From Candidatus Latescibacterota bacterium (lineage in GTDB: Bacteria; Latescibacterota; UBA2968): a DNA stretch of 64,000 nucleotides. Shown here one piece after another: positions 1 through 41,040 of this stretch. The stretch lies in contig OZ242311.1 in NCBI GenBank assembly GCA_965207885.1, positions 2,432,001 to 2,496,000 on the forward strand. The letters run 5' to 3'. How positions within the stretch are numbered: the first letter of the stretch is position 1; the number at the start of each line of letters is the position of its first letter. Under the pieces are notes generated by a model. That model saw nothing but the letters and a program-made list of their open reading frames with translations, ran no database searches and was not told where the DNA came from. The position numbers and the translations under genes are program-made.

Positions 1-22
1 TGAGGAAGTGGAAATTCGGTGA
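1..22 (+). CDS. 3' end of upstream gene (..EEVEIR*), possibly a Mec/M67 JAMM protease
   Basis: In-frame GAG GAA GTG GAA ATT CGG TGA at the window edge; identity inferred only from context next to a sulfur carrier. Confidence 0.25.
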
Positions 23-24444: not shown

Positions 24445-25461
24445 ATGACACCCATCAGACTTGGTGTTGTTGGTCTTGGTCTTGGTCAATGGATAGTAGA
24501 AACTGTGAAGAAAATCGAGGGTGCCCACGTTGTGGCAGCTGCTGAGAATATGCCTGCTCGATTGGACAGTATGGGTGGTTATAGAGCCTATGAGAAGAAA
24601 AATGATCTCAGGCTTTACGAAGATGCAGACCAGATGATGGATGCCGAATCGTTGGACGCGGTCGCACTTGCGGTGACGCCCAAACATCGCAGGGCGCTGA
24701 TTGAATCGGCTGGCAACAGGGGCATCCCAATGCTGATTGAGAAGCCCTGGGCAGGGACAGTGGAAAGTGGAAGAGCGTTGGTTGACTTGTGCAACAGTTT
24801 TGATTTGCCCTGTCAGGTCGAATTTCCGATCCGTTGTATGCCTGCAATGGTGCGGTTGCGAGAACTCCTGAAAGGTCCTCTCGGAAATGGGTGGATGGCG
24901 AATGGCAATCTGATGGTGGGCTGGTGTCCTCCGCCAGAATCAAAACACTGGGATCCGGAAAACCACAATGGGCTTATCAACGAGTGCTATGTACATCTTT
25001 TCGACACGCTGGCATTTTTACTGGGCAAGCCCAAATCCGTATTCTCATTTGGGGGATCGTTCAGAGGTAGCCCAATGCCGGATGCGGCCGCAGCAGTCAT
25101 TGAGTTCGAATCTGGAGCCTCCGCTTCGCTGACTTGTGGTGGCATTGGTGCTGCGTGTGCTGATGGCGGACATCTTCTGGATATTTGGACAGAGAACGGA
25201 CTGGCACGCATAACTGGCACGCAATGGCTACCGGATACGCTGGAATGGGCCTTGAGGGAGGCCAAAGAATCTACAGTCGAGACGTTTCAGGCGCCTGAGC
25301 GGACGACCCTGATGGAGTACAATATGCGTGCATTTTTCAACGCTGTCCGAAGTGGCACCCCTGTAGCTGCAACACCTGAAGACGGACTGATTGCGACAGC
25401 CGTCGCGATGGCCATTCAGGAATCTATTATTACGGGGAATCGCGTTGCGGTGGACTGTTAG
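24445..25461 (+). CDS. Gfo/Idh/MocA-family oxidoreductase
   Basis: LGVVGLGLG, IEKP, HLFD; TTGACA promoter-like site and AAGGAGG RBS. Confidence 0.85.
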   Translation: MTPIRLGVVGLGLGQWIVETVKKIEGAHVVAAAENMPARLDSMGGYRAYEKKNDLRLYEDADQMMDAESLDAVALAVTPKHRRALIESAGNRGIPMLIEKPWAGTVESGRALVDLCNSFDLPCQVEFPIRCMPAMVRLRELLKGPLGNGWMANGNLMVGWCPPPESKHWDPENHNGLINECYVHLFDTLAFLLGKPKSVFSFGGSFRGSPMPDAAAAVIEFESGASASLTCGGIGAACADGGHLLDIWTENGLARITGTQWLPDTLEWALREAKESTVETFQAPERTTLMEYNMRAFFNAVRSGTPVAATPEDGLIATAVAMAIQESIITGNRVAVDC

Positions 25462-25494
25462 GCAAACTCGATTCTGATCCGCCCCCTCTCTGTT

Positions 25495-26382
25495 CTAACC
25501 CAGATCTGGCACTCGCCAGTTGGCATACCAGCGAGAGTCTTCTGGGGGTGCTTTATCCCCGCTCTGCATAGAAGCAAAATTTTTCATTCGGGGGCGGATC
25601 TCCTCGTCCCAGATACGCTCAATCTGCCCGTAGGTCAGCGGGGTGTGATCGGGTTTTAAACGCTCGTATTCCGTTAGAAGTTCTTTTGCTTTTTCAGATA
25701 TATGTGCTGCCGTATCAGCCGCCATTTCTTCTCCTGCTCGCCGGCTGGATGTATCCACATAATCGCCCTGGGCGAAATGAGGCCCTGGCACGTCCGGTCC
25801 GGGAAGCCGGGACAGATCTACACAGTCCGGGGCCACGGCCCACAGCAGCGATGTTTCGCCTCTTCCCGCGTGGCCTCCCATGCCCCGGTCGTCTTTGAAT
25901 CGGGATTCCCCTGTGCCCATACTCATAAGAGAATAGAGGCGGACGGAAACGTGTTGCTGGAGGATTTCAATTACAACGGGTACGTCCAGGCGGTGTGGTC
26001 CCGAATGTCCGGAGAAGAGCACGGCTACGTGAAATCCCAGGGCATCGACGGCGCGGATGTGATAGCAGAGATTTTTTAAAAAGATCCACGGTGGCACCGC
26101 TGTAAGCCAGGGGCGGACGTCACCCACCCGTTCGTGTGCCCAGGTCCCGTAGCCTCCCGATTCGTGGCAGTGCCAGTATTCGGGCGGGGCTACAATGCCT
26201 CCGAATGACCGGGCGGCCTGACACACTACTCCGTGGGCACGCAGCGCGTCCAGGCCCAGGGCGTTCACCGGCCCGTGGGGTTCACACAGGCCATAGGGCA
26301 AATACACCACTGGACAATCCTCAAAGGCGGCTTCCAGTTCATCGGGAAACATGCGTTCCCAGCGGACTTCTCTCCGTTCCAT
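25495..26382 (-). CDS. Creatininase-family amidohydrolase
   Basis: LPYGLCEPHG..GLD, SGH, GHAGRGETS. Confidence 0.85.
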   Translation of the reverse strand: MERREVRWERMFPDELEAAFEDCPVVYLPYGLCEPHGPVNALGLDALRAHGVVCQAARSFGGIVAPPEYWHCHESGGYGTWAHERVGDVRPWLTAVPPWIFLKNLCYHIRAVDALGFHVAVLFSGHSGPHRLDVPVVIEILQQHVSVRLYSLMSMGTGESRFKDDRGMGGHAGRGETSLLWAVAPDCVDLSRLPGPDVPGPHFAQGDYVDTSSRRAGEEMAADTAAHISEKAKELLTEYERLKPDHTPLTYGQIERIWDEEIRPRMKNFASMQSGDKAPPEDSRWYANWRVPDLG

Positions 26383-26480
26383 GGTTCAGGCTCCTTATGT
26401 TGAATGGAGAATGAGATAAAAGGCCGGATGAAATTTAGGCTATAAATAAAAAAAGGCTATGATTAATCTCATACATCCGC

Positions 26481-28922
26481 AAGTACGACAAAAGCACTTG
26501 ACAACTATTGCCGAAAACGCCTTCTTACCAGCCATCCATGCGCAAGAAACGGCCCTTGTAGTTCCTACACGTAGAGGAGATTAGAAGATGGACGACGCGA
26601 TGCGTGAAACGTTCGCACGACAAGGCTATATCGTCGTGCCCAACGTGCTCAATCAACAGCAGTTGGACGAGCTCAATCAAGTCTACGATCAGCATATCCA
26701 CGAGCGGGAGGAGACGCTGTCCACGGCCCGCACTGACAAACAGAACCGTAAGAGCATCCGGGAGCGCGACACACGCCAGACAACAGATCGGCACGGCAAC
26801 ACCTACGTGGGGAGAAGGTTATGGAGCAAGGCCTACCGGGACCTGATCGACAACGAGACCATGCTGCCCATCCTTGAAGAGCTTCTCGGCGACCCGACGT
26901 GGGGCCATGCCCCAGCACATATGCCGGCAGAGCTCCGCCCCTTGTTCCGGCTGGATCACGACAATATACATTACAAGCCCGGCCGGAAACCGACAGACGG
27001 CGAGGACAAAGGCGGGACACTCCACGGCGGCCCTGGCAACTTTCATATCACGTGTGTGTATGAACTCAAGACAGTCGGACCAGATGACGGGGGCTTCGGG
27101 TGCGTTGTCGGCACACACAAGCCGGCCAATGAGCAGAAACTGACGGACATCGACGGCGACTGGCGGCGGAACTGGTGTGACACGGAGTGGACGTCGCAGC
27201 TGCCAAACTGGGATGAAGATGTGCCGGTGCACCGCGTCGAGGCCAGGGCTGGGGACTGCATTTTGTTCAGTGAGAAGCTCAAACACGGTACGATTCCGTG
27301 GGCAGGGAGCGACGAGCGCCGCACCCTCTTCTACAAGTATGTTCCTTTCGGTATGCACCACGGCGACGTCGCGTACGACACCAACGACCCCGAACTCACG
27401 GAGCGGCAGAAACGGATCCTGGAGTTCTCGCCGTGCTGGTTTAACGATCCCCGTGAGGACAAAGACTACTCCGCGAACCCTGCGCTTACAACGCTCCATC
27501 CGCTGGCGTGTGTGGAGAGCGATCCGGGTGTGTTGCTGCCGGGTATGTCGCCGCCGCACATCCGGCTGACGGACGAGACCAGGGCAATGCTGAGTGCCAA
27601 CTGAAGATTCGAAACATAAAACAGCCTTTTTGTTTCGAAACCGTGGGTATTCAATTTGAATGCCTGCGGTTTTTGGTTTAATTGATGCTGGATTTGAGAT
27701 CCTTCACGTTTGGGAAGAGCCGACCAAAAATCATGATCGATGGCGTCAGAATTGTTTTCACGCTCTGCCCAACGGATTCTATATGGTCTGTAAGAAGAAG
27801 CAATAAGTACGACAAAAACACTTGACAACGACTGCTGAAAACTCCTTCTTACCAGCCATTCATGCGCAAGAAATGGCCCTTTTAGTTTCTACACATAGAG
27901 GAGATTAGAAGATGGACAATGCGATGCGTGACACGTTCGCACGACAAGGCTATATCGTCGTGCCCAACGTGCTCAATCAACAGCAGTTGGACGAGCTCAA
28001 TCAAGTCTATGATCAGCATATCTTTGAGCGGGAGGAGACGCTGTCCACGGCCGGCACCGACAAACAGAACCGCTTCTACATCGGCGGGCGCGACACACGC
28101 CAGACAACTGACCGGCACGGCAACACCTACGTGGGGAGAAGGTTATGGAGCAAGGCCTACAGGGACCTGATCGACAACGAGACCATGCTGCCCATCCTTG
28201 AAGAGCTTCTCGGCGACCCGACGTGGGGCCATGCCCCAGCACATATGCCGGCAGAGCTTCGCCCCTTGTTCCGGTTAGATCACGACAATATACATTACAA
28301 GCCCAGCCGGAAACCGACAGACGGTGAGGACAAAGGCGGGACACTCCACGGCAGCCCGAGCAGCTTTCATATCACGTGTGTGTATGAACTCAAGACAGTC
28401 GGACCAGATGACGGAGGCTTCGGTTGCGTTGTCGGCACACACAAGCCGGCCAATGAGCAGAAACTGACGGACATCGACGGTGACTGGCGGCGAAACTGGT
28501 GCGACACGGAGTGGACGTCGCAACTGCCAAACTGGGATGACGATGTGCCGGTACACCGCGTCGAGGCCAGGGCTGGGGACTGCATTTTGTTCAGTGAGAA
28601 GCTCAAACACGGTACGATTCCATGGGCGGGGAGTGGCGAACGTCGCACCCTCTTCTACAAGTATGTTCCTTTCGGCATGCACCACGGCGACGCCGCGTAT
28701 GACACCAACGACCCCGAACTGACTGAGCGGCAGAAACGGATCCTGGAGTTCTCGCCGTGCTGGTTTAACGATCCCCGTGAGGACAAAGACTACTCCGCGA
28801 ATCCTGCGCTTACAACGCTCCATCCGCTGGCGTGTGTGGAGAGCGATCCGAGTGTGTTGCTGCCGGGCATGTCGCCGCCGCACATCCGGCTGACGGACGA
28901 GACCAGGGCAATGCTGAGTGCC
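26481..28922 (+). repeat. Tandem duplication of an about 1.12-kb unit (26481-27598 and 27805-28922)
   Basis: Near-identical DNA at constant offset 1324, including about 107 bp upstream of each start codon. Confidence 0.95.
26588..27604 (+). CDS. PhyH-like Fe/2OG enzyme, copy 1 (HGG variant)
   Basis: FARQGYIVVPNVL, LHGG, DGGFGCVVGTHK, AGDCILFSEKLKHGT, RRTLFYKY. Confidence 0.8.
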   Translation: MDDAMRETFARQGYIVVPNVLNQQQLDELNQVYDQHIHEREETLSTARTDKQNRKSIRERDTRQTTDRHGNTYVGRRLWSKAYRDLIDNETMLPILEELLGDPTWGHAPAHMPAELRPLFRLDHDNIHYKPGRKPTDGEDKGGTLHGGPGNFHITCVYELKTVGPDDGGFGCVVGTHKPANEQKLTDIDGDWRRNWCDTEWTSQLPNWDEDVPVHRVEARAGDCILFSEKLKHGTIPWAGSDERRTLFYKYVPFGMHHGDVAYDTNDPELTERQKRILEFSPCWFNDPREDKDYSANPALTTLHPLACVESDPGVLLPGMSPPHIRLTDETRAMLSAN

Positions 28923-28928
28923 GGCTAG
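27912..28928 (+). CDS. PhyH-like Fe/2OG enzyme, copy 2 (HGS variant)
   Basis: Paralog of 26588-27604 with the same length (338 aa). Confidence 0.8.
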   Translation: MDNAMRDTFARQGYIVVPNVLNQQQLDELNQVYDQHIFEREETLSTAGTDKQNRFYIGGRDTRQTTDRHGNTYVGRRLWSKAYRDLIDNETMLPILEELLGDPTWGHAPAHMPAELRPLFRLDHDNIHYKPSRKPTDGEDKGGTLHGSPSSFHITCVYELKTVGPDDGGFGCVVGTHKPANEQKLTDIDGDWRRNWCDTEWTSQLPNWDDDVPVHRVEARAGDCILFSEKLKHGTIPWAGSGERRTLFYKYVPFGMHHGDAAYDTNDPELTERQKRILEFSPCWFNDPREDKDYSANPALTTLHPLACVESDPSVLLPGMSPPHIRLTDETRAMLSAG

Positions 28929-30911: not shown

Positions 30912-31637
30912 ATGGGCGTAATGACAGATGAACAGAAGAAGCACTTTCGCGAAGCAGGATATCTGCTGGTGTCGGGTTTGATTCCCGAGCATGTGGTTCG
31001 CAAGGCTGAAGACGCGATGTGGGCGGCGTTGGAAATGGACCGTGACGACTCTGAAACCTGGGGGCGTGTGTCCGTGCATGCGATCAATCAACAGCATCGT
31101 GCATCGCCAGAAAATCGAATGTTGAGTTCGCCGGATATCCTGGCGTGTTATACAGATGATATTTTGATCGCAGTTTCTGAATTGACTGGTGTAGATCGCG
31201 AGGATATCCACGCGCCGACGCAGGTTATGACTCAGAACGCGTTTCCGACGGAAGGTGAATGGAGCCACTTGAAACCTCACCTGGATGGTGGATCCGATCC
31301 GGTAAAGTACAATCGTCCGACGTTTCCCATTCCAATCCTGGTGCATTCAATTCTGTATCTGAGTGATACAGCACCGCACGGGGGATGCACGTTTGGATGG
31401 CCTGGTTCACATCAAAAGCTTCAGGGTATTGCAGAGGACAACCCAGAGAAATATCCCTACTTGTGGGACGTGAATTCGGGTAAGGACACGGTAGATATTG
31501 GTGAAGGTGTGGAATTGGTGGCAAAGCGTGGAGACATTCTGTTTTACCAAAACTTTTTTTTGCATGCAGGAAGCAAGAATATCAATGACTATCCTCGGCT
31601 TGCATGTCGTAATACATGGAAGTGGAAGGCTGTATGA
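30912..31637 (+). CDS. PhyH-family dioxygenase
   Basis: FREAGYLLV, PHLDG, GWPGSH, RGDILF..LHAGSKN..PR. Confidence 0.85.
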   Translation: MGVMTDEQKKHFREAGYLLVSGLIPEHVVRKAEDAMWAALEMDRDDSETWGRVSVHAINQQHRASPENRMLSSPDILACYTDDILIAVSELTGVDREDIHAPTQVMTQNAFPTEGEWSHLKPHLDGGSDPVKYNRPTFPIPILVHSILYLSDTAPHGGCTFGWPGSHQKLQGIAEDNPEKYPYLWDVNSGKDTVDIGEGVELVAKRGDILFYQNFFLHAGSKNINDYPRLACRNTWKWKAV

Positions 31638-31948: not shown

Positions 31949-32035
31949 AGATTGTTTTTTTATAATTGTTTTTCTTGCTATTTGCCCAAAAATAACTATA
32001 ATTCTCATTTAATAATCATTTTTCCGGGATGTGCT

Positions 32036-33553
32036 ATGGCTAAACACCACCAAAATCAATCGCTATACAGGTTCGCGGGGTATGCGGCACTGATTGAACA
32101 GTATGACCTCGACGTCATCCCGAATTGGCACACGTCTATGGTGATTATTAGAGGAACCCACAGGATTGATTCCCTTGGGGGGATCATCAAAGAAGTCTAT
32201 CCATCCCGGTACTGGCCCGGGGAGACATTGGGCGACCATCTGGAATTTGCACTCAAATACGATGGGACGAATCTCGCAATTCTCGCCAGCTTGTTCGAGA
32301 AAGTATCAGAGGATGATTTCCTCGACTATGTCTGCTCGAAACCGACCGGTAAGTATGCCAGGCGACTGTGGTTTTTCTATGAGTTCCTGACCGGGAAGCT
32401 ACTCCCGCTGGATGACCTGAACCGGGGAAATTACATCGATCTCCTCGAATCAGATGCCTATTATACGGTCGGGCCTGCCCGCAAGGTTCGCCGTCAGCGG
32501 ATCAACAATAATCTGCCTGGTGAACGCCGATTCTGTCCCACAATTCGTCGCACCGATATTCTTCGAGACTTTGAAACGAAAGCGTTGCATACCAGATGCC
32601 AACAAGTCGTGTCTCGATACGCGCCAGAATTGTTGAAACGCGCGCTCAGCTACCTGTACACCAAGGAAACGAAATCGTCTTATGAAATCGAACGCATCAC
32701 CCCTTCCTCAACCCGAACCGAACGCTTCATAGCACTGCTCCAACTGGCCGAGCAAGAGGATTTTTGTCGAAAACCGCGGTTGATTGACTTACAGAACCGC
32801 ATCGTTGACGCCCGGTTCCAGGATCCCGATTATCGAATGACCCAAAATTACGTCGGACAAACTGTGGCTTGGCAAAGAGAACATATTCACTTTGTGGCCC
32901 CAAAGCCCGACGATTTAGCTGGTCTTATGGAAGGTCTCATAGCCACCCACAAACGCATGGAAGCCGGTGGTGTTCCACCCGTGATTCAAGCTGCTGCCAT
33001 TGCCTATGGATTCGTCTTTCTACACCCTTTTGAGGATGGCAATGGTCGTATCCACCGCTTCTTGATCCACAATATTCTCGCTCGGCGAGGCTTTACACCC
33101 GAAAGCGTTATGTTTCCCATATCGGCGGTCATGCTGAAGAATCCATCCGACTACGACGCTTCGCTGGATGCGTTCTCCCGACAACTCATGCCTCTGGTGG
33201 AATACACCCTGGAACAGGATGGACGCTTGACTGTGCATAACGATACCGCGATATGGTACCGCTATATCGACCTGACCCCCCAGGCAGAGGCTCTGTTTCG
33301 GTTTATCGACCAGACCATTGATACCGAACTCGCCGACGAACTGGCCTTCCTGGCCAACTACGATGCGGCCAAACAAGCGATCCAAAATACCGTAGATATG
33401 CCCGACAGACAGATTGATCTTTTCATTCGCTTCTGTCTCCAAAACAACGGCCGCCTGTCCGCACGAAAACGCGCAAGCCACTTTGATTATCTGACAGATG
33501 AAGAAATTGATACTATGGAACAGGCTGTGCAATTTTCTGAGAGGTCTTCTTGA
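32036..33553 (+). CDS. Fic-family protein (long type)
   Basis: HPFEDGNGRIHR Fic motif; KETKSSYEIE inhibitory-like helix. Confidence 0.9.
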   Translation: MAKHHQNQSLYRFAGYAALIEQYDLDVIPNWHTSMVIIRGTHRIDSLGGIIKEVYPSRYWPGETLGDHLEFALKYDGTNLAILASLFEKVSEDDFLDYVCSKPTGKYARRLWFFYEFLTGKLLPLDDLNRGNYIDLLESDAYYTVGPARKVRRQRINNNLPGERRFCPTIRRTDILRDFETKALHTRCQQVVSRYAPELLKRALSYLYTKETKSSYEIERITPSSTRTERFIALLQLAEQEDFCRKPRLIDLQNRIVDARFQDPDYRMTQNYVGQTVAWQREHIHFVAPKPDDLAGLMEGLIATHKRMEAGGVPPVIQAAAIAYGFVFLHPFEDGNGRIHRFLIHNILARRGFTPESVMFPISAVMLKNPSDYDASLDAFSRQLMPLVEYTLEQDGRLTVHNDTAIWYRYIDLTPQAEALFRFIDQTIDTELADELAFLANYDAAKQAIQNTVDMPDRQIDLFIRFCLQNNGRLSARKRASHFDYLTDEEIDTMEQAVQFSERSS

Positions 33554-33662
33554 CGATGATCAAGCAATATCGCGGACGATGCTTCAAAGAATCGCGATCG
33601 CATTGAATCAAAGGGGCGAGATTAATTTTGTACCAGTGGAAGGGCAACAAGAGGTCGTGTAA
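33552..33662 (+). pseudogene. C-terminal remnant of an XRE/HigA-like HTH antitoxin
   Basis: SRTMLQRIAIALNQRGEINFVP* resembles the 'SLSMLQRIA.AL..RVEIRFVP' ending; N-terminus absent. Confidence 0.45.
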
Positions 33663-33919
33663 AAGTAGCGGGATGAATAGCGGAATCTGTCCGTAGAAAC
33701 GGGGTAACTCCACTCTCGTGTTGGGTTGGATTTACCCCGTTTGGATTTACCCCGTTTTTAGTGTATAATTTAGAAGGTTCACCTCAATCATCCTGTGCCA
33801 TCAGTTTTTCATAGGTGATGGGTAATTGAAATGTTATACATCAAATCGGGTCAAGTCCATGTTGATAGACTTTGACCTTTGGATAGGTGGAGCAACAAAT
33901 TTTTGACTGGAGGCAGAAC

Positions 33920-34111
33920 GTGAAATTTTCAGTGAATTTATCTGAAAATGAGGTCAAACGCCTACAGGCGACCGCTAAGCGACTGAATGTTCCTGTGGAG
34001 AAATTGGCTAAGGCAGCATTAACCGACCTTTTACATTCGGATGTAGATTTTGAGCACGCTGCGGAGCATGTTCTAAAGAAGAATCGGGAACTCTATCGAA
34101 GGTTGAGTTGA
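33920..34111 (+). CDS. Small DNA-binding antitoxin partner of Doc
   Basis: GGAGG RBS with GTG; ends VLKKNRELYRRLS; overlaps the toxin start. Confidence 0.75.
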   Translation: MKFSVNLSENEVKRLQATAKRLNVPVEKLAKAALTDLLHSDVDFEHAAEHVLKKNRELYRRLS

Positions 34112-34497
34112 TGCGTTATATCAGTCTGAGTGAAGTGTTAGAACTTCATCGGCGTATTATTGAAGAAAGTGGCGGATCGACGGGGTTGCGTGACCTCGGC
34201 GGATTGGAATCAGCCATCACCCAGCCCCGTATGACGTTTGGAGGTCGTGATCTTTACCCGACTCTGATTGAAAAAGCAGCCGCATTGTGTTTTTCTCTGG
34301 TTCAAAATCACCCGTTCATTGATGGAAACAAGCGAGTAGGGCATGCCGCTATGGAAGTCATGCTAATTCTGAATGGGTATGAAATTTATGCTCCCGTAGA
34401 TGATCAGGAACAGGTCATTTTAGAACTTGCTTCAGGGGATGTTTCTCGTGATAAACTGATCGAATGGTTGACAGATCCTATTGATGAAGTGAGATAA
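34111..34497 (+). CDS. doc: Death-on-curing (Doc) family toxin
   Basis: GLRDLGGLESA, EKAAAL, NHPFIDGNKR. Confidence 0.9.
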   Translation: MRYISLSEVLELHRRIIEESGGSTGLRDLGGLESAITQPRMTFGGRDLYPTLIEKAAALCFSLVQNHPFIDGNKRVGHAAMEVMLILNGYEIYAPVDDQEQVILELASGDVSRDKLIEWLTDPIDEVR

Positions 34498-35189
34498 TGG
34501 CAAAACAAAAGGCCGTAAGTGTTGCTTTGTGGGAGCAAAAACTCACGACCTTTGAAGAATTATATAATGAAGCCACACCAGAGGAACGGAAAGACCTCTT
34601 AAGACTGCATATCAACCACCTGGTCTATACCCCTGACGGGATTCAACTCGCCTTATTTGATCCCAGTAACGAAGCAGATAGGCCCAAAGTTCAGCGAGAT
34701 GGCACGTCTGGCTCCCCAACCATTCCATCGACTGAACTTTTCTGTGTGTGGGATCACTTCCCCATCCATCACTTCCGCAGGAACAAGAAGCCCATCATCG
34801 CAATCGGTCATAAGCCACAAAAACAATTCGTTACTCAAAAACTGCACCATCCCAACTATCTCAAAAGAGCCACGTATTATCACGAACTTCTTGATAAGGG
34901 CTATGTTCAATCTCAGACCGAACTTGCCAAACAGGTGGGAATTTCGAGGACCAAAACCCGATTGATTCTACGGTTGCTCAAACTGGATGAGGAAATTAAA
35001 GACTTTATCCTGAGCTTGGATGATTCAGACCCAAGGCTGAGTGCTGTGGCTGTCTATCGGTTACAACCATTACTCCAGCTTAAAAGCAAGGAGAGACAAA
35101 GAAGGAAATTTTGGCAGATGATCGAGGACCAATATCCAGGGCAAAGCACCTGCTATGAGAAGATTGCGCTATCAAGATTTGATAGCTAA
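34497..35189 (+). pseudogene. Probable serine-recombinase C-terminal remnant joined to an HTH domain
   Basis: EERKDLLRLHINHLVYTPDGIQL resembles large serine recombinase tails; SQTELAKQVGISRTK HTH; no catalytic domain. Confidence 0.45.
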
Positions 35190-35285
35190 ATAAAATAGGC
35201 GATAATTTCTCTGTAACCTTAGACTCGATTCGTTTTGGTTTATAACAGCATAAAGGGTGCTTTCTGCACTATCCACGAAAACGGG

Positions 35286-35606
35286 TCAATTCCACCACCT
35301 TTGAAAATCATCTATCCGCTTATCCATCTGCTTTACTTCTCCTTTTGTTTCAGCCATTTCATTCGCCCCTTCCACCAGCCTTTTAGCAAACTCTCTGATT
35401 TCTGGCTTATTGGTGTCCTGGAATATTTTAAGGATTTCAGATGTTTGTGTTATATGTGTGAAATTGTTATTTATTTCTTCTATCTGCCCTTTTAGGAGGT
35501 CATTTTGTTCTCGCAGGAGATTAACTGTTTCATCATTCTTTTCATTTATTTGCCGAGATAGTGCAATAAATTCCTCAATGGCTTCGTCTAATCCTTCTTT
35601 GTCCAT
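35286..35606 (-). CDS. Hypothetical coiled-coil protein
   Basis: 106-aa helical heptad-rich ORF downstream of structured leader. Confidence 0.55.
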   Translation of the reverse strand: MDKEGLDEAIEEFIALSRQINEKNDETVNLLREQNDLLKGQIEEINNNFTHITQTSEILKIFQDTNKPEIREFAKRLVEGANEMAETKGEVKQMDKRIDDFQRWWN

Positions 35607-35629
35607 ATTGTCACGTCTTTCTAAATTTA

Positions 35630-35986
35630 TGTGAATCGTGTGAAAAAGACAGGCGAAAAAAAACGCAGTTATCTTTGCGTGGTGGTGACACCTTGCAACC
35701 GCAAGGTGTCGGGCAGAGGTTACCACTCGCGCAGAGATACTGCGGGAAATCCCACGTATTTACCAGAGATCGGGTAGCTAATCCGTTCTTATATCTGGTT
35801 CTTGTATTTGGCGGGCTACCCGACCTATCGGGCTGCCCAAGTGGTAACCGTATTCGTGTGAATCGTGTGAAAATAAAAAAGCCCTGACGGTATCCAGTCA
35901 ACATGCCGAATACCATGAGGGTATTCAGGGTTGTCCGCCAGGGCTAAAAAGTATATTCGTATGTCGATGCAATCGGCTGTTGACTG
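35630..35986 (-). ncRNA. Two tandem attenuator/antisense-type structured RNA elements (putative)
   Basis: Two multi-stem terminators with U-tracts, each with an upstream competing complementary strand and followed by the same 17-nt repeat. Confidence 0.5.
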
Positions 35987-36118
35987 AATACGCAAAATTT
36001 AATGTATCCAACATCGAAGGTCAATATCTTTTACACTTCTTTACAAACTACCCGCCTTTATTGCCACGGGAGTATAAAACAAATGCCGCGTATGTCAAAT
36101 GAGAGACAGACATCTTTG

Positions 36119-36445
36119 TTACAAAAGTTTTATGATGCCAGTTATTAGGGCAGAGGCGCCAAGAATTGCCATCACAATTTTAAATGTAAAATCTCGCCTA
36201 TCTCTGGTTTCTTCTTTTACCTTTTTCTCATAATTTTCAATGGCTTCTTCTGCTGTTTTAATATCCCTGACGGTGTTTGTCACTCCATCAAGGTTTTCTT
36301 CTATACCATCAAGCCTACTGTCAAGTTTGCGCAACCACTCCGTAACCATCCAAAATGTCTGTTCGTTGTCTTCAAATCCGGCTCCGGGAAACGAAGGTTG
36401 TTCACCGGGGGTTGTGGAGCCGCCGAGGTTTTTTCTATTTGTCAT
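36119..36445 (-). CDS. Hypothetical protein, coiled coil with C-terminal TM helix
   Basis: ATGA overlap with upstream gene; hydrophobic IVMAILGASALITGIIKLL end. Confidence 0.65.
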   Translation of the reverse strand: MTNRKNLGGSTTPGEQPSFPGAGFEDNEQTFWMVTEWLRKLDSRLDGIEENLDGVTNTVRDIKTAEEAIENYEKKVKEETRDRRDFTFKIVMAILGASALITGIIKLL

Positions 36446-36747
36446 TGTTGAACCCCCAGCCACTCCCAAAGGTCTCGGCTGGCATAGCCATAATATCCCC
36501 CACTAACGCGCACAATGAACCCTGATCCTATATCGCTACCGTCTCCATATCCAAGTTCTTCGCTTAACTCCCGCGCAGTTCCTGAGTATGTGACAAAATA
36601 AATGTCTGGCGCATGTACATCACACACCTGCACAGGGGGCGAAGGGGCCATGCTCTTGCCATTTTGACTCACCAGATTCTGAATCTTTGTTTGCAATGCC
36701 AGAGCTTCATCGTCGTCAATTTGCAATGGGACGATAGCGTACACCAT
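36442..36747 (-). CDS. Hypothetical small alpha/beta protein (YYGYA..LWEWL end)
   Basis: GAGGTG RBS; tightly coupled to both neighbours. Confidence 0.65.
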   Translation of the reverse strand: MVYAIVPLQIDDDEALALQTKIQNLVSQNGKSMAPSPPVQVCDVHAPDIYFVTYSGTARELSEELGYGDGSDIGSGFIVRVSGGYYGYASRDLWEWLGVQQ

Positions 36748-40765: not shown

Positions 40766-41040
40766 AGGTCGTGCTAGACGGGGAGATAGCGGTGCCCTGT
40801 AGCCCGCAATCCGCTATAGCGGGGTCGAATTCCACGTCTGAGAACCGGTATTTTGGATCGCGGTCGATGAGTAGGCAGCGTTGATCGTCAGGTCCTGCGC
40901 AACGTGCCTATGCCGAACCCCGTCAGGACCGGAAGGTAGCAGCGGTAAGCAAATCGGTGCGTGTGCCGCAGGGGCACCTGGCAGGAGCCAGCGCTCGTTG
41001 AACGCCCCGGGGTAGCGGTTCGAAGCGCGGTGCACGGCCT
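40766..41040 (+). ncRNA. ffs: Signal recognition particle RNA, large (Alu-domain) type
   Basis: GTGCTAGACGGGGAG..GCGGTGCCCTGTA Alu domain; TCAGGACCGGAAGGTAGCAGC helix 8; paired ends; upstream of dnaX. Confidence 0.93.

Follow-up and report, generated by a model that had tools for sequence, protein, structure and literature searches.

A multi-phylum family of pseudoknotted RNAs and its placement behind a putative genus-restricted terminator module in Candidatus Latescibacterota

Described systems and the layout of the locus

The fluoride, ZTP and preQ1 riboswitches combine a pseudoknot with a downstream terminator or SD platform. One of the two RNA elements described here (element B) was similar to them in that a 5' strand paired across an intervening domain and the predicted platform would compete for a part of the folded domain. 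On the other hand, it had no sequence or Rfam match to these riboswitches, its domain was larger (~170 nt), and its predicted switching helix was an internal hairpin (P6) rather than the closing stem. In the metE leader of Bacillus clausii, SAM and coenzyme-B12 riboswitches, which belong to different classes, are arranged in tandem. Both this leader and our tandem of elements A and B consisted of unrelated structured elements in series, each with its own stem and U-tract, and both elements must be passed. The two cases differed in that no ligands are known for A and B and that element A was without a conserved sensor-like core. Like the A-B tandem in the reading proposed here, the antisense RNAs C4 (of P1 and P7) and CI (of P4) control termination by RNA pairing upstream of genes on mobile DNA, and an earlier sequence-only reading of the locus had drawn this analogy. 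However, C4 and CI are released by processing and regulate in trans through target sites that are repeated, whereas no repeated complementary sites were seen here. The only repeat was a direct 17-mer and the Rfam C4 model (RF01695) had no hit in the window; this analogy was not supported.

The closest described relative of element B was sRNA-Xcc1 (RF02221), a discrete RNA of ~88 nt that was characterized in Xanthomonas campestris by Northern blot and end mapping (PMC2996969). According to the parts of the literature covered here, it is located 5' of symE in the integron cassette that is most widely distributed in Xanthomonas (bioRxiv 10.1101/2025.06.18.660453), is present seven times in Xylella Temecula1 with five copies in tandem (PMC12189769), and is found upstream of an ORF6N gene in APSE phages (bioRxiv 10.1101/2020.03.17.996009). 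Its carriers in these parts are integron cassettes, transposons, plasmids and phages, and no long form, pseudoknot or leader role is described there. The name Latescibacter was not found in our literature search among the papers listed. Rfam classifies sRNA-Xcc1 as 'Gene; sRNA', whereas the evidence from element B points to a leader with an SD or terminator platform. The title of a 2011 paper by Chen et al. reportedly calls it a trans-acting sRNA.

The window that was analysed is a stretch of 64,000 nt from Candidatus Latescibacterota (contig OZ242311.1, positions 2,432,001 to 2,496,000). Both elements were located on its minus strand, in the gap that separates the 3' end of a 116-aa ORF (36469-36119) from the start codon of a 106-aa ORF (35606-35286). 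The parts of the locus were as follows.

36071..36098, minus strand: promoter-like site TTGACA-16-TATACT (11/12 consensus in a consensus scan), just 3' of the stop codon of ORF 36469-36119
35996..36024, minus strand: promoter-like site TTGACC-17-TAAATT (9/12 consensus), aligned with the sites of the other three full copies of element A
35973..35990, minus strand: 5' arm of element A, with its partner at 35909-35891
35946..35972, minus strand: spacer of element A, containing ACGAATAT
35874..35945, minus strand: putative terminator of element A, in which 35945-35935 and 35890-35880 form a stem of 11 bp around an inner hairpin (35926-35908), with T6 at 35879-35874
35857..35873, minus strand: first copy of the 17-mer, at the A/B junction
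35679..35850, minus strand: core of element B, a full-length match to the covariance model R1 (134.5 bits)
35656..35678, minus strand: putative expression platform of element B, made of a tail (35678-35664) and T8 (35663-35656), the tail being complementary to the 5' strand and loop of helix P6
35630..35646, minus strand: second copy of the 17-mer, 3' of the element B U-tract
35286..35606, minus strand: downstream ORF of 106 aa, coiled-coil-like

All stems, the U-tracts and the exact pair of 17-mers were found on the minus strand where the sequence-only reading had placed them. The 521-nt stretch containing both elements had a folding z-score of -5.9 compared with shuffled sequences. Additionally, no sequence similarity was detectable between elements A and B, as that reading had proposed. 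Covariation showed both elements to be RNA structures that were conserved at the family level, and it is this family-level covariation that settled that the locus was more than a chance arrangement. The downstream ORF started 50 nt past the U-tract of element B.

The setting of the locus was island-like. A tRNA-Asn gene (37741-37666, minus strand) was located near the elements, and the plus strand at 31952-35189 encoded a 533-aa Fic-domain protein, a pair of a 74-aa DUF6290-like protein and a 129-aa Fic/Doc toxin, and a ParB-HTH protein of 230 aa. Within the examined stretch, no integrase was recognized. Farther away, three ORFs of 338 aa followed each other at 24445-28928 of the plus strand (24445, 26588 and 27912); the last of them was a PhyH protein according to Pfam, and their paralogy was assumed from the equal length. 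Another PhyH ORF (241 aa) was present at 30912-31637 of the plus strand. The bacterial large-type SRP RNA at 40769-41037 (plus strand, 175.5 bits) was located beside three tRNA genes; it was ordinary and of use only as a taxonomic hint. A contig of a relative (run X6) skipped 33 nt at window positions 36081-36115, just behind the stop codon of the 116-aa ORF and over the stronger of the two promoter-like sites, and continued with a different sequence after the element A terminator.

Element B and its RNA family

Element B was one copy of a large, multi-phylum and strongly covarying family of pseudoknotted RNAs. Its helices in the window were the following.

35849-35840/35727-35718, minus strand: helix P1
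35824-35816/35716-35708, minus strand: helix P1'
35815-35811/35755-35751, minus strand: helix P3
35798-35795/35766-35763, minus strand: helix P4
about 35790-35770, minus strand: apical region of P5
35744-35740/35734-35730, minus strand: helix P6
35710-35701/35696-35687, minus strand: terminal hairpin with 10 perfect base pairs

The covariance model R1 was made from an alignment of 19 diverse copies and contained 173 positions and 40 pairs. Among the 101 R1 matches that were aligned, 93.1% of the cells held standard pairs and 36 of the 40 pairs were changed on both sides. Namely, P1 (with its 10 pairs), P3, P4, P5, P6 and the terminal hairpin all covaried. None of 500 shuffles reached the observed level and partners slid by 1-3 columns were at most 47% paired; since the nested helices were counted on alignments (A3 and A5) that had been fitted to the model structure, and since the sequences were related, the shuffle statistics and the Wilcoxon tests overstate the significance. 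The copy in the window was intact and ranked 17th among the 101 matches.

An additional long-range helix, P1', in which GUCGGGUAG pairs with CURCCCGGC, was proposed by RNAalifold. Its cells were 97.5% paired, and three of its pairs had changes in both strands; one of the three occurred as AU (37), CG (29) and GC (11). P1' was absent from model R1 and therefore the alignment had not been fitted to it. Its 5' strand was continuous with P3, and it overlapped the terminal hairpin by 3 nt. Since P1 and P1' cross each other, the element B RNA is a pseudoknot. The joints of the ~170-nt domain were conserved as AAUACAA, GAAUA, UUCCCGCA and GCCCGGC, and about 50 of the 170 nt were near-invariant.

Other pairings did not stand up to the comparison. 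A helix P2 (CCCG/CGGG) reached 80.7% pairing in the 101 sequences and 72.2% in the cross-phylum set but hardly covaried, and P1' makes use of its 3' strand. Similarly, a GGGCAG/CTGCCC pairing was superseded by the P1' helix from RNAalifold. HDV-like or other ribozyme folds, which were considered by topology only, were without Rfam support. The sequence-only reading had also described an extra stem (35823-35815/35778-35770). It does pair in the window, but it was not a feature of the family, as a complement of at least 7 bp was present in 8 of the 101 copies and would compete with P1'. The apical loop of P5 was nearly always G(G)GUAGCUCC or GGUCGCUCC in alignment A3. This loop contained, in the same orientation, the GGGUAGC that is also found in the 5' strand of P1' and so could compete for the P1' 3' strand; in eight of the 101 copies, including that of the window, it was complementary to the P1' 5' strand instead.

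The family extended far beyond the window, and this distribution over many phyla, which emerged from the R1 searches, was the main point that the sequence-only reading had missed. When the 521-nt stretch was compared by BLAST with its own genome, four further matches to the B core were found that were identical to each other and 75% identical to the query. Matches were present in 24 of 61 genomes (G000 and 60 relatives), nearly all of them to element B. Model R1 identified nine B copies in the own genome and had matches in 64 of 151 genomes of the phylum, with 18/19 genomes in genus g1, 15/15 in g7 and 18/22 in g20. Most other genera of this 151-genome sample had no R1 match, and one genome had 14 copies.

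A core pattern with 17 specified bases was then scanned over one genome per species, which yielded at least 121 stretches and, among the matches listed, 80 loci. R1 matched 73 of these 80 loci (75 matches with 21-163 bits). By their record titles, 13 of the 73 listed loci belonged to Latescibacter* and 60 to other taxa, which among the matches listed were Candidatus Binatia, Nitrospirales/Nitrospira, Alpha- and Gammaproteobacteria, groups of Acidobacteriota, Gemmatimonadota/Longimicrobiales, Rhodothermales, cultured Acetobacteraceae and a few unassignable MAGs. The cultured carriers among the matches listed included Acetobacter syzygii, A. oeni and A. farinalis, Komagataeibacter melomenusus and K. 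swingsii, Gluconacetobacter aggeris and Endosaccharibacter trunci. In this cross-phylum set, again among the matches listed, 88.7% of the cells were paired and 33 of 40 pairs were changed on both sides, including all 10 pairs of P1; an SD and a start codon followed 50 of the 75 matches, many of them opening signal-peptide-like ORFs. Since the pattern pre-selects sequences, the cross-phylum figures are not a measure of prevalence.

Two groups of copies had settings of their own. The own genome contained a 2.77-kb repeat in four copies with 99.96-100% identity (at about 304.5, 630.6, 2367.9 and 2611.9 kb). This repeat (L006, G000:C1:2367700-2370900) encoded an IS1-type transposase (279 aa, DDE_Tnp_IS1), a 71-aa basic ORF and a 210-aa signal-peptide ORF, and it contained a B-family RNA with its own promoter, thus carrying four of the own-genome B copies. 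The location of B within an IS1-type repeat means that the RNA family also travels as IS cargo. At a locus shared by the g7 genomes (L045-L058 and relatives), the B copy had, in the loci examined, a promoter and a tail ending in GCGGGAUUUUUUU that pairs with the P6 5' strand. No ORF followed it in the loci checked, and a gene for a CPBP-type membrane protease was located ~700 nt downstream in some of them. This g7 copy looks like a housekeeping sRNA form of the family.

With respect to described families, nothing was found by Rfam at the gathering threshold at the elements in the window or in 15 related loci, and in E-value mode the region 35500-36200 yielded no more than noise (snoR03 and mir-4791). 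There was thus no direct match of the window elements to a described family. However, sRNA-Xcc1 gave nine sub-threshold hits in 8 of 20 of the relatives' loci listed by the pattern scan, with 26-37 bits against a gathering cut-off of 53 bits. The own genome had just two RF02221 hits with an E-value of 10 or less, both of them on B copies (28.3 and 23.1 bits), and the window copy had none at this same limit. The alignments spanned the full 87-position model. Namely, its closing helix (GUCGGGU.. with ..CCCGGC) corresponded to P1', its internal-loop arm with AAUACAA/GAAUA to P3-P4, and its second hairpin to P6, and this core architecture was present in the window copy as well. sRNA-Xcc1 and B were also similar in being multi-copy, in occurring on mobile DNA, and in standing upstream of unrelated genes on the same strand. 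They differed by the 10-bp P1 of element B that crosses P1' and forms the pseudoknot, by the P5 extension and by the terminal hairpin. Since the alignments were full-length and sub-threshold, we consider B to be a long form of the sRNA-Xcc1 fold that is not a member of RF02221 by the Rfam criterion, as the B copies tested stayed below 53 bits. The description of the element as undescribed has to be qualified, as its core was a distant, sub-threshold relative of a described RNA.

In 75 of the 101 copies a promoter-like sequence (TTGNNN-16..18-TANNNT) was located upstream of the model start, with its end at a distance of 1-14 nt (in most cases 4-6 nt) from that start; in a control stretch farther upstream (340-400 nt), such a site was present in 2 of 101. 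Since these sites ended just before the R1 start, the transcripts would begin at P1. In 70 of the copies, the SD and start codon of an ORF of 30 aa or more followed on the same strand within 120 nt downstream, typically after 15-35 nt. The 31 copies that had no such SD and ORF nearby included three g7 representatives and a subfamily ending in an A-type terminator, and both of these look like free-standing sRNA genes. No RNA run was listed as containing the stretch 35250-36500. A 167-nt contig from a run guessed to be RNA covered only the core of a related B copy; such contigs are silent on transcription.

The 5' strand and loop of P6 were complementary either to the downstream SD/start region or, as in the window, to a tail followed by a U-run. 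In the window copy, the P6 region 35744-35730 can pair with the tail at 35679-35664, just before the T8. The cognate duplex between P6 and the downstream region had a mean energy of -17.55 kcal/mol, compared with -13.41 for shuffled and -14.89 for non-cognate partners, and it was better than the shuffled one in 84 and than the non-cognate one in 76 of the 101 copies. For the window copy, a fold with forced P1, P6 and terminal hairpin (-76.1 kcal/mol) and the state in which the P6 5' strand and the tail form a terminator (-75.9 kcal/mol) were equal in energy; these energies exclude the contribution of the pseudoknot. The putative terminator of B had about 13 pairs and U8 with a structured loop of ~70 nt, and the terminator scan flagged only a local 5-bp hairpin with a T-run. 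That of A had 11 bp and U6 with a loop of 44 nt and was not called by the scan. Because of these loops, neither terminator is canonical. The family combined a covarying structured domain, a 5' position and a predicted platform pairing that is exclusive with the folded domain, which are criteria for a leader. The predicted wiring of B is ON-switch-like and similar to that of riboswitches.

A hydrophobic N-terminus or a lipobox was present in 42 of the 70 downstream ORFs according to a crude rule, and export appeared to be their common thread by this rule. Among the 53 ORFs of at least 80 aa, 34 matched no Pfam family with an E-value of 1e-4 or lower. Matches of the remaining 19 were to WD40 (3), dockerin (3), S8 (2) and M8 (2) peptidases, weakly DUF150_C/CBM65 (2), and CsgG, Sel1, collagen, SNase, superinfection immunity, DUF1232 and GFO_IDH_MocA (one each). 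No metabolic theme was seen in Pfam among these 53 ORFs, and no metabolite was pointed to. Unlike most targets of the family, the 106-aa ORF of the window had no obvious SD and, by eye, no signal peptide. Its Pfam matches were all of the coiled-coil type and below the cut-off and no homologue was found in 40 relatives, which agreed with the single orphan coiled-coil gene of the sequence-only reading.

Element A and the tandem arrangement

The terminator stem of element A was formed by AGCCCTGGCGG (35945-35935) and CCGTCAGGGCT (35890-35880) with one G-U pair included, and it enclosed an inner hairpin, GAATACC/GGTATTC (35926-35908); T6 followed. The upstream strand 35986-35973 paired with 35909-35895, and this helix could be extended to 35990-35973/35909-35891 with one bulge. 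The 3' arm (35909-35891) was located inside the loop of the terminator stem. The minimum free energy structure was the terminator state (-39.4 kcal/mol), compared with -35.4 kcal/mol for the arm-paired state. However, the arms and the terminator stem can coexist as a pseudoknot, so that arm pairing need not prevent termination.

BLAST found element A in 4 of 21 genomes of the genus. A model, R2, that was built from the four full copies had matches in eight of the 121 genomes searched from the class. These eight belonged to genus g1, and the 100 genomes from outside it had no match. Throughout the four full copies, the terminator stem was 100% paired, and the arm helix was 89% paired with four pairs changed on both sides. 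These compensatory changes were found at about 70-75% sequence identity in three genomes. Moreover, each full copy had a promoter-like site placing the start at the 5' arm; in the window this was the site 35996..36024, from which consensus matching predicted a transcription start at the same arm. A divergent subfamily followed the same plan with an equivalent arm pair of different sequence, and its stem also showed compensatory changes (e.g., AGCCTTGACGG with CCGTCAAGGCT). Divergent copies at 243.6 kb of the own genome and in G015 were located directly 5' of an SD and a gene, and those of G006, G004 and G010 were seen in the alignment only. By these comparisons, element A is a real module that appears to be restricted to the genus. 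Conservation of the spacer was confined to the four full copies and did not extend to the divergent subfamily, an observation that speaks against a sensor. Having no conserved sensor-like core, element A may be constitutive.

Two other identities of element A were rejected. It was not a high-copy repeat, since the own genome had only three A-type terminators, and it was a misfit by eye to the core-site consensus of an integron attC-like site. In two G020 loci (L154 and L155; G020:C1:4398300-4399900 and 3520500-3522100), the 5' untranslated arm of a 170-aa membrane/coiled-coil gene was complementary at 13 of 14 positions to a segment within the 3' terminator of the same gene, ~600 nt away. Type I toxin mRNAs are inhibited by fold-back through pairing of their 5' and 3' ends, and the end pairing in G020 resembled this. 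The C-terminal coiled coil of this gene resembled the window ORF 36469-36119 by eye.

Elements A and B had a common crossed topology, in which the 5' arm, the 5' strand of the stem, the 3' arm and the 3' strand of the stem follow one another. The shared architecture that had been noted earlier, a stem with a U-tract and a 5' arm in each element, was thus confirmed. Consensus matching revealed no promoter-like site between 35873 and 35850, so B would be reachable only by read-through of A. The A-B order recurred twice in G020 and once in G012. By the consensus test, the promoter was absent, and A was immediately upstream, in the window copy and in both tandem B copies of G020. The G012 copy of B was truncated after P3 and directly followed A; it was outside the promoter test. 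As the promoter and terminator of A were found at the usual position of the B promoter, B and the ORF would depend on read-through of A. The serial arrangement of A and B is plausible on these grounds. Therefore, of the serial two-input gate that had been proposed, the series architecture was retained, but a response to signals is only conjectural.

The 17-mer TTTTCACACGATTCACA was exact at 35873-35857 and 35646-35630. When up to three mismatches were allowed, the window contained these two matches and no others, against 0.22 expected, and two were reached in 2 of 100 shuffles; its 15-nt core occurred only twice in the 6.2-Mb genome, so that no further copy was found there. The repeat flanked B in one of the 101 family members, and the direct repeats of all others were at most 10 nt long. 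Hence the proposed role of the 17-mer as a designed exit repeat of both elements was not upheld, and B was rejected as a mobile element with target-site duplications for the same reason. A diverged version of the upstream copy was present at the A-B junction in G012 and in a contig of a relative. Since the pair flanked only the window B while the upstream copy recurred in diverged form, the downstream copy is best read as a duplication that came from an insertion or rearrangement of B or of the A-B unit, not as an exit signal.

Competing explanations and the proposed control of the locus

The explanation that we prefer, and consider fairly probable, is that B is a cis-acting pseudoknotted 5' leader of a widespread family, that it stands here behind the genus-specific element A so that two conditional stops follow in series, and that the 17-mers are a scar. 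An unlikely alternative is that A and B are genes for trans-acting sRNAs, of ~115 nt for A with its own promoter and terminator and ~190 nt for B by read-through or processing, and that the ORF is incidental. Detection of sRNA-Xcc1 as a discrete RNA on Northern blots in the cited work (PMC2996969) would fit this, but terminated leaders equally give discrete small RNAs on blots. The g7 shared-locus copy (15/15 genomes) and a copy at 667 kb of the own genome had a promoter and a terminator without an adjacent ORF; against these stood the 70 of 101 copies with an SD and a start close downstream on the same strand, as well as the specific complementarity of the P6 region to its own downstream SD region. 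Element A was laid out like a typical sRNA, with a stem that is followed by an unpaired segment and a terminator, whereas its divergent copies were placed directly in front of genes.

It is rather improbable that the elements are decayed remnants of mobile cassettes without a regulatory role here, where A would represent the fused 5' and 3' untranslated ends that remained after gene loss and B an insert flanked by the 17-nt duplication. This origin was suggested by G020, where an A-like leader and an A-type terminator flanked a 170-aa membrane/coiled-coil gene and both contained the same GCCCTGACGGACAAACT stretch, so that recombination between them would yield A. The direct 17-mers flanking B in the window only, the position of the region between the tRNA-Asn gene and the Fic/Doc modules, and the four other B copies on the 2.77-kb IS1-type repeat were also consistent with it. 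However, decay would hardly leave the window B intact at its rank of 17th of 101 (134.5 bits), or the arm helix of A maintained by compensatory changes in three genomes. Very little probability was given to the 17-mer being a functional exit signal or operator common to both modules, for instance with its tandem TTCACA as a protein site or a -35 box. The repeat was exact, contained TTCACA twice at a distance of 9 nt, and in its downstream copy formed a weak promoter-like site with GACAAT (9/12). Yet it was present at none of the other 100 family members and nowhere else in the genome, and such a weak promoter would start transcription inside the ORF.

According to the preferred explanation of two conditional stops in series, element A would consist of a promoter, a 5' arm and a GC-rich terminator stem with a matching arm in its loop, a genus-specific and promoter-proximal module that we accept with the same fair confidence as a part of the joint explanation. 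It would replace the usual promoter of B at the window, G020 and G012 loci, and B and the ORF would be transcribed only by polymerases that pass the A terminator. In folded B, the P6 hairpin would hold a sequence that otherwise pairs with the SD/start region; in the window copy, this sequence would pair with the tail before the U8 and form a terminator. Stabilization of the B fold would lead to expression or read-through, and the unfolded state to SD occlusion or termination. The stabilizing factor could be a ligand, an ion, a protein or the kinetics of folding. The identical 17-mers would be a scar of a local duplication or insertion and carry no signal.

A bolder version is possible, and we hold it only tentatively. 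Here, the long-form family would be a new riboswitch class, responding to some ligand or ion, that turns genes for lipoproteins and secreted proteins ON in at least eight named taxon groups (counted from record titles, several of them distinct phyla), with as many as 14 copies in one genome. In that case, the sRNA-Xcc1 RNAs found in integron cassettes, phages and islands would belong to this class as short relatives or as leaders that were terminated, and the placement of the element behind a second, genus-specific attenuator in the window would create a two-stage gate.

A 170-nt pseudoknot with hundreds of covarying copies in many phyla that was missed by the Rfam search has the hallmarks of an orphan riboswitch or a protein-binding leader. 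Its position upstream of genes for exported proteins (proteases, dockerin, WD40, Sel1, collagen-like and nuclease proteins, and many uncharacterized ones) suggests a common control signal for a part of the secretome of little-studied bacteria. The family also suggests that sRNA-Xcc1, whose annotation is that of an sRNA gene, could be understood differently, and since cultured Acetobacter, Komagataeibacter and Gluconacetobacter have copies, this idea is accessible to laboratory work. Finally, the A-B tandem would be a natural example of two unrelated conditional stops in series.
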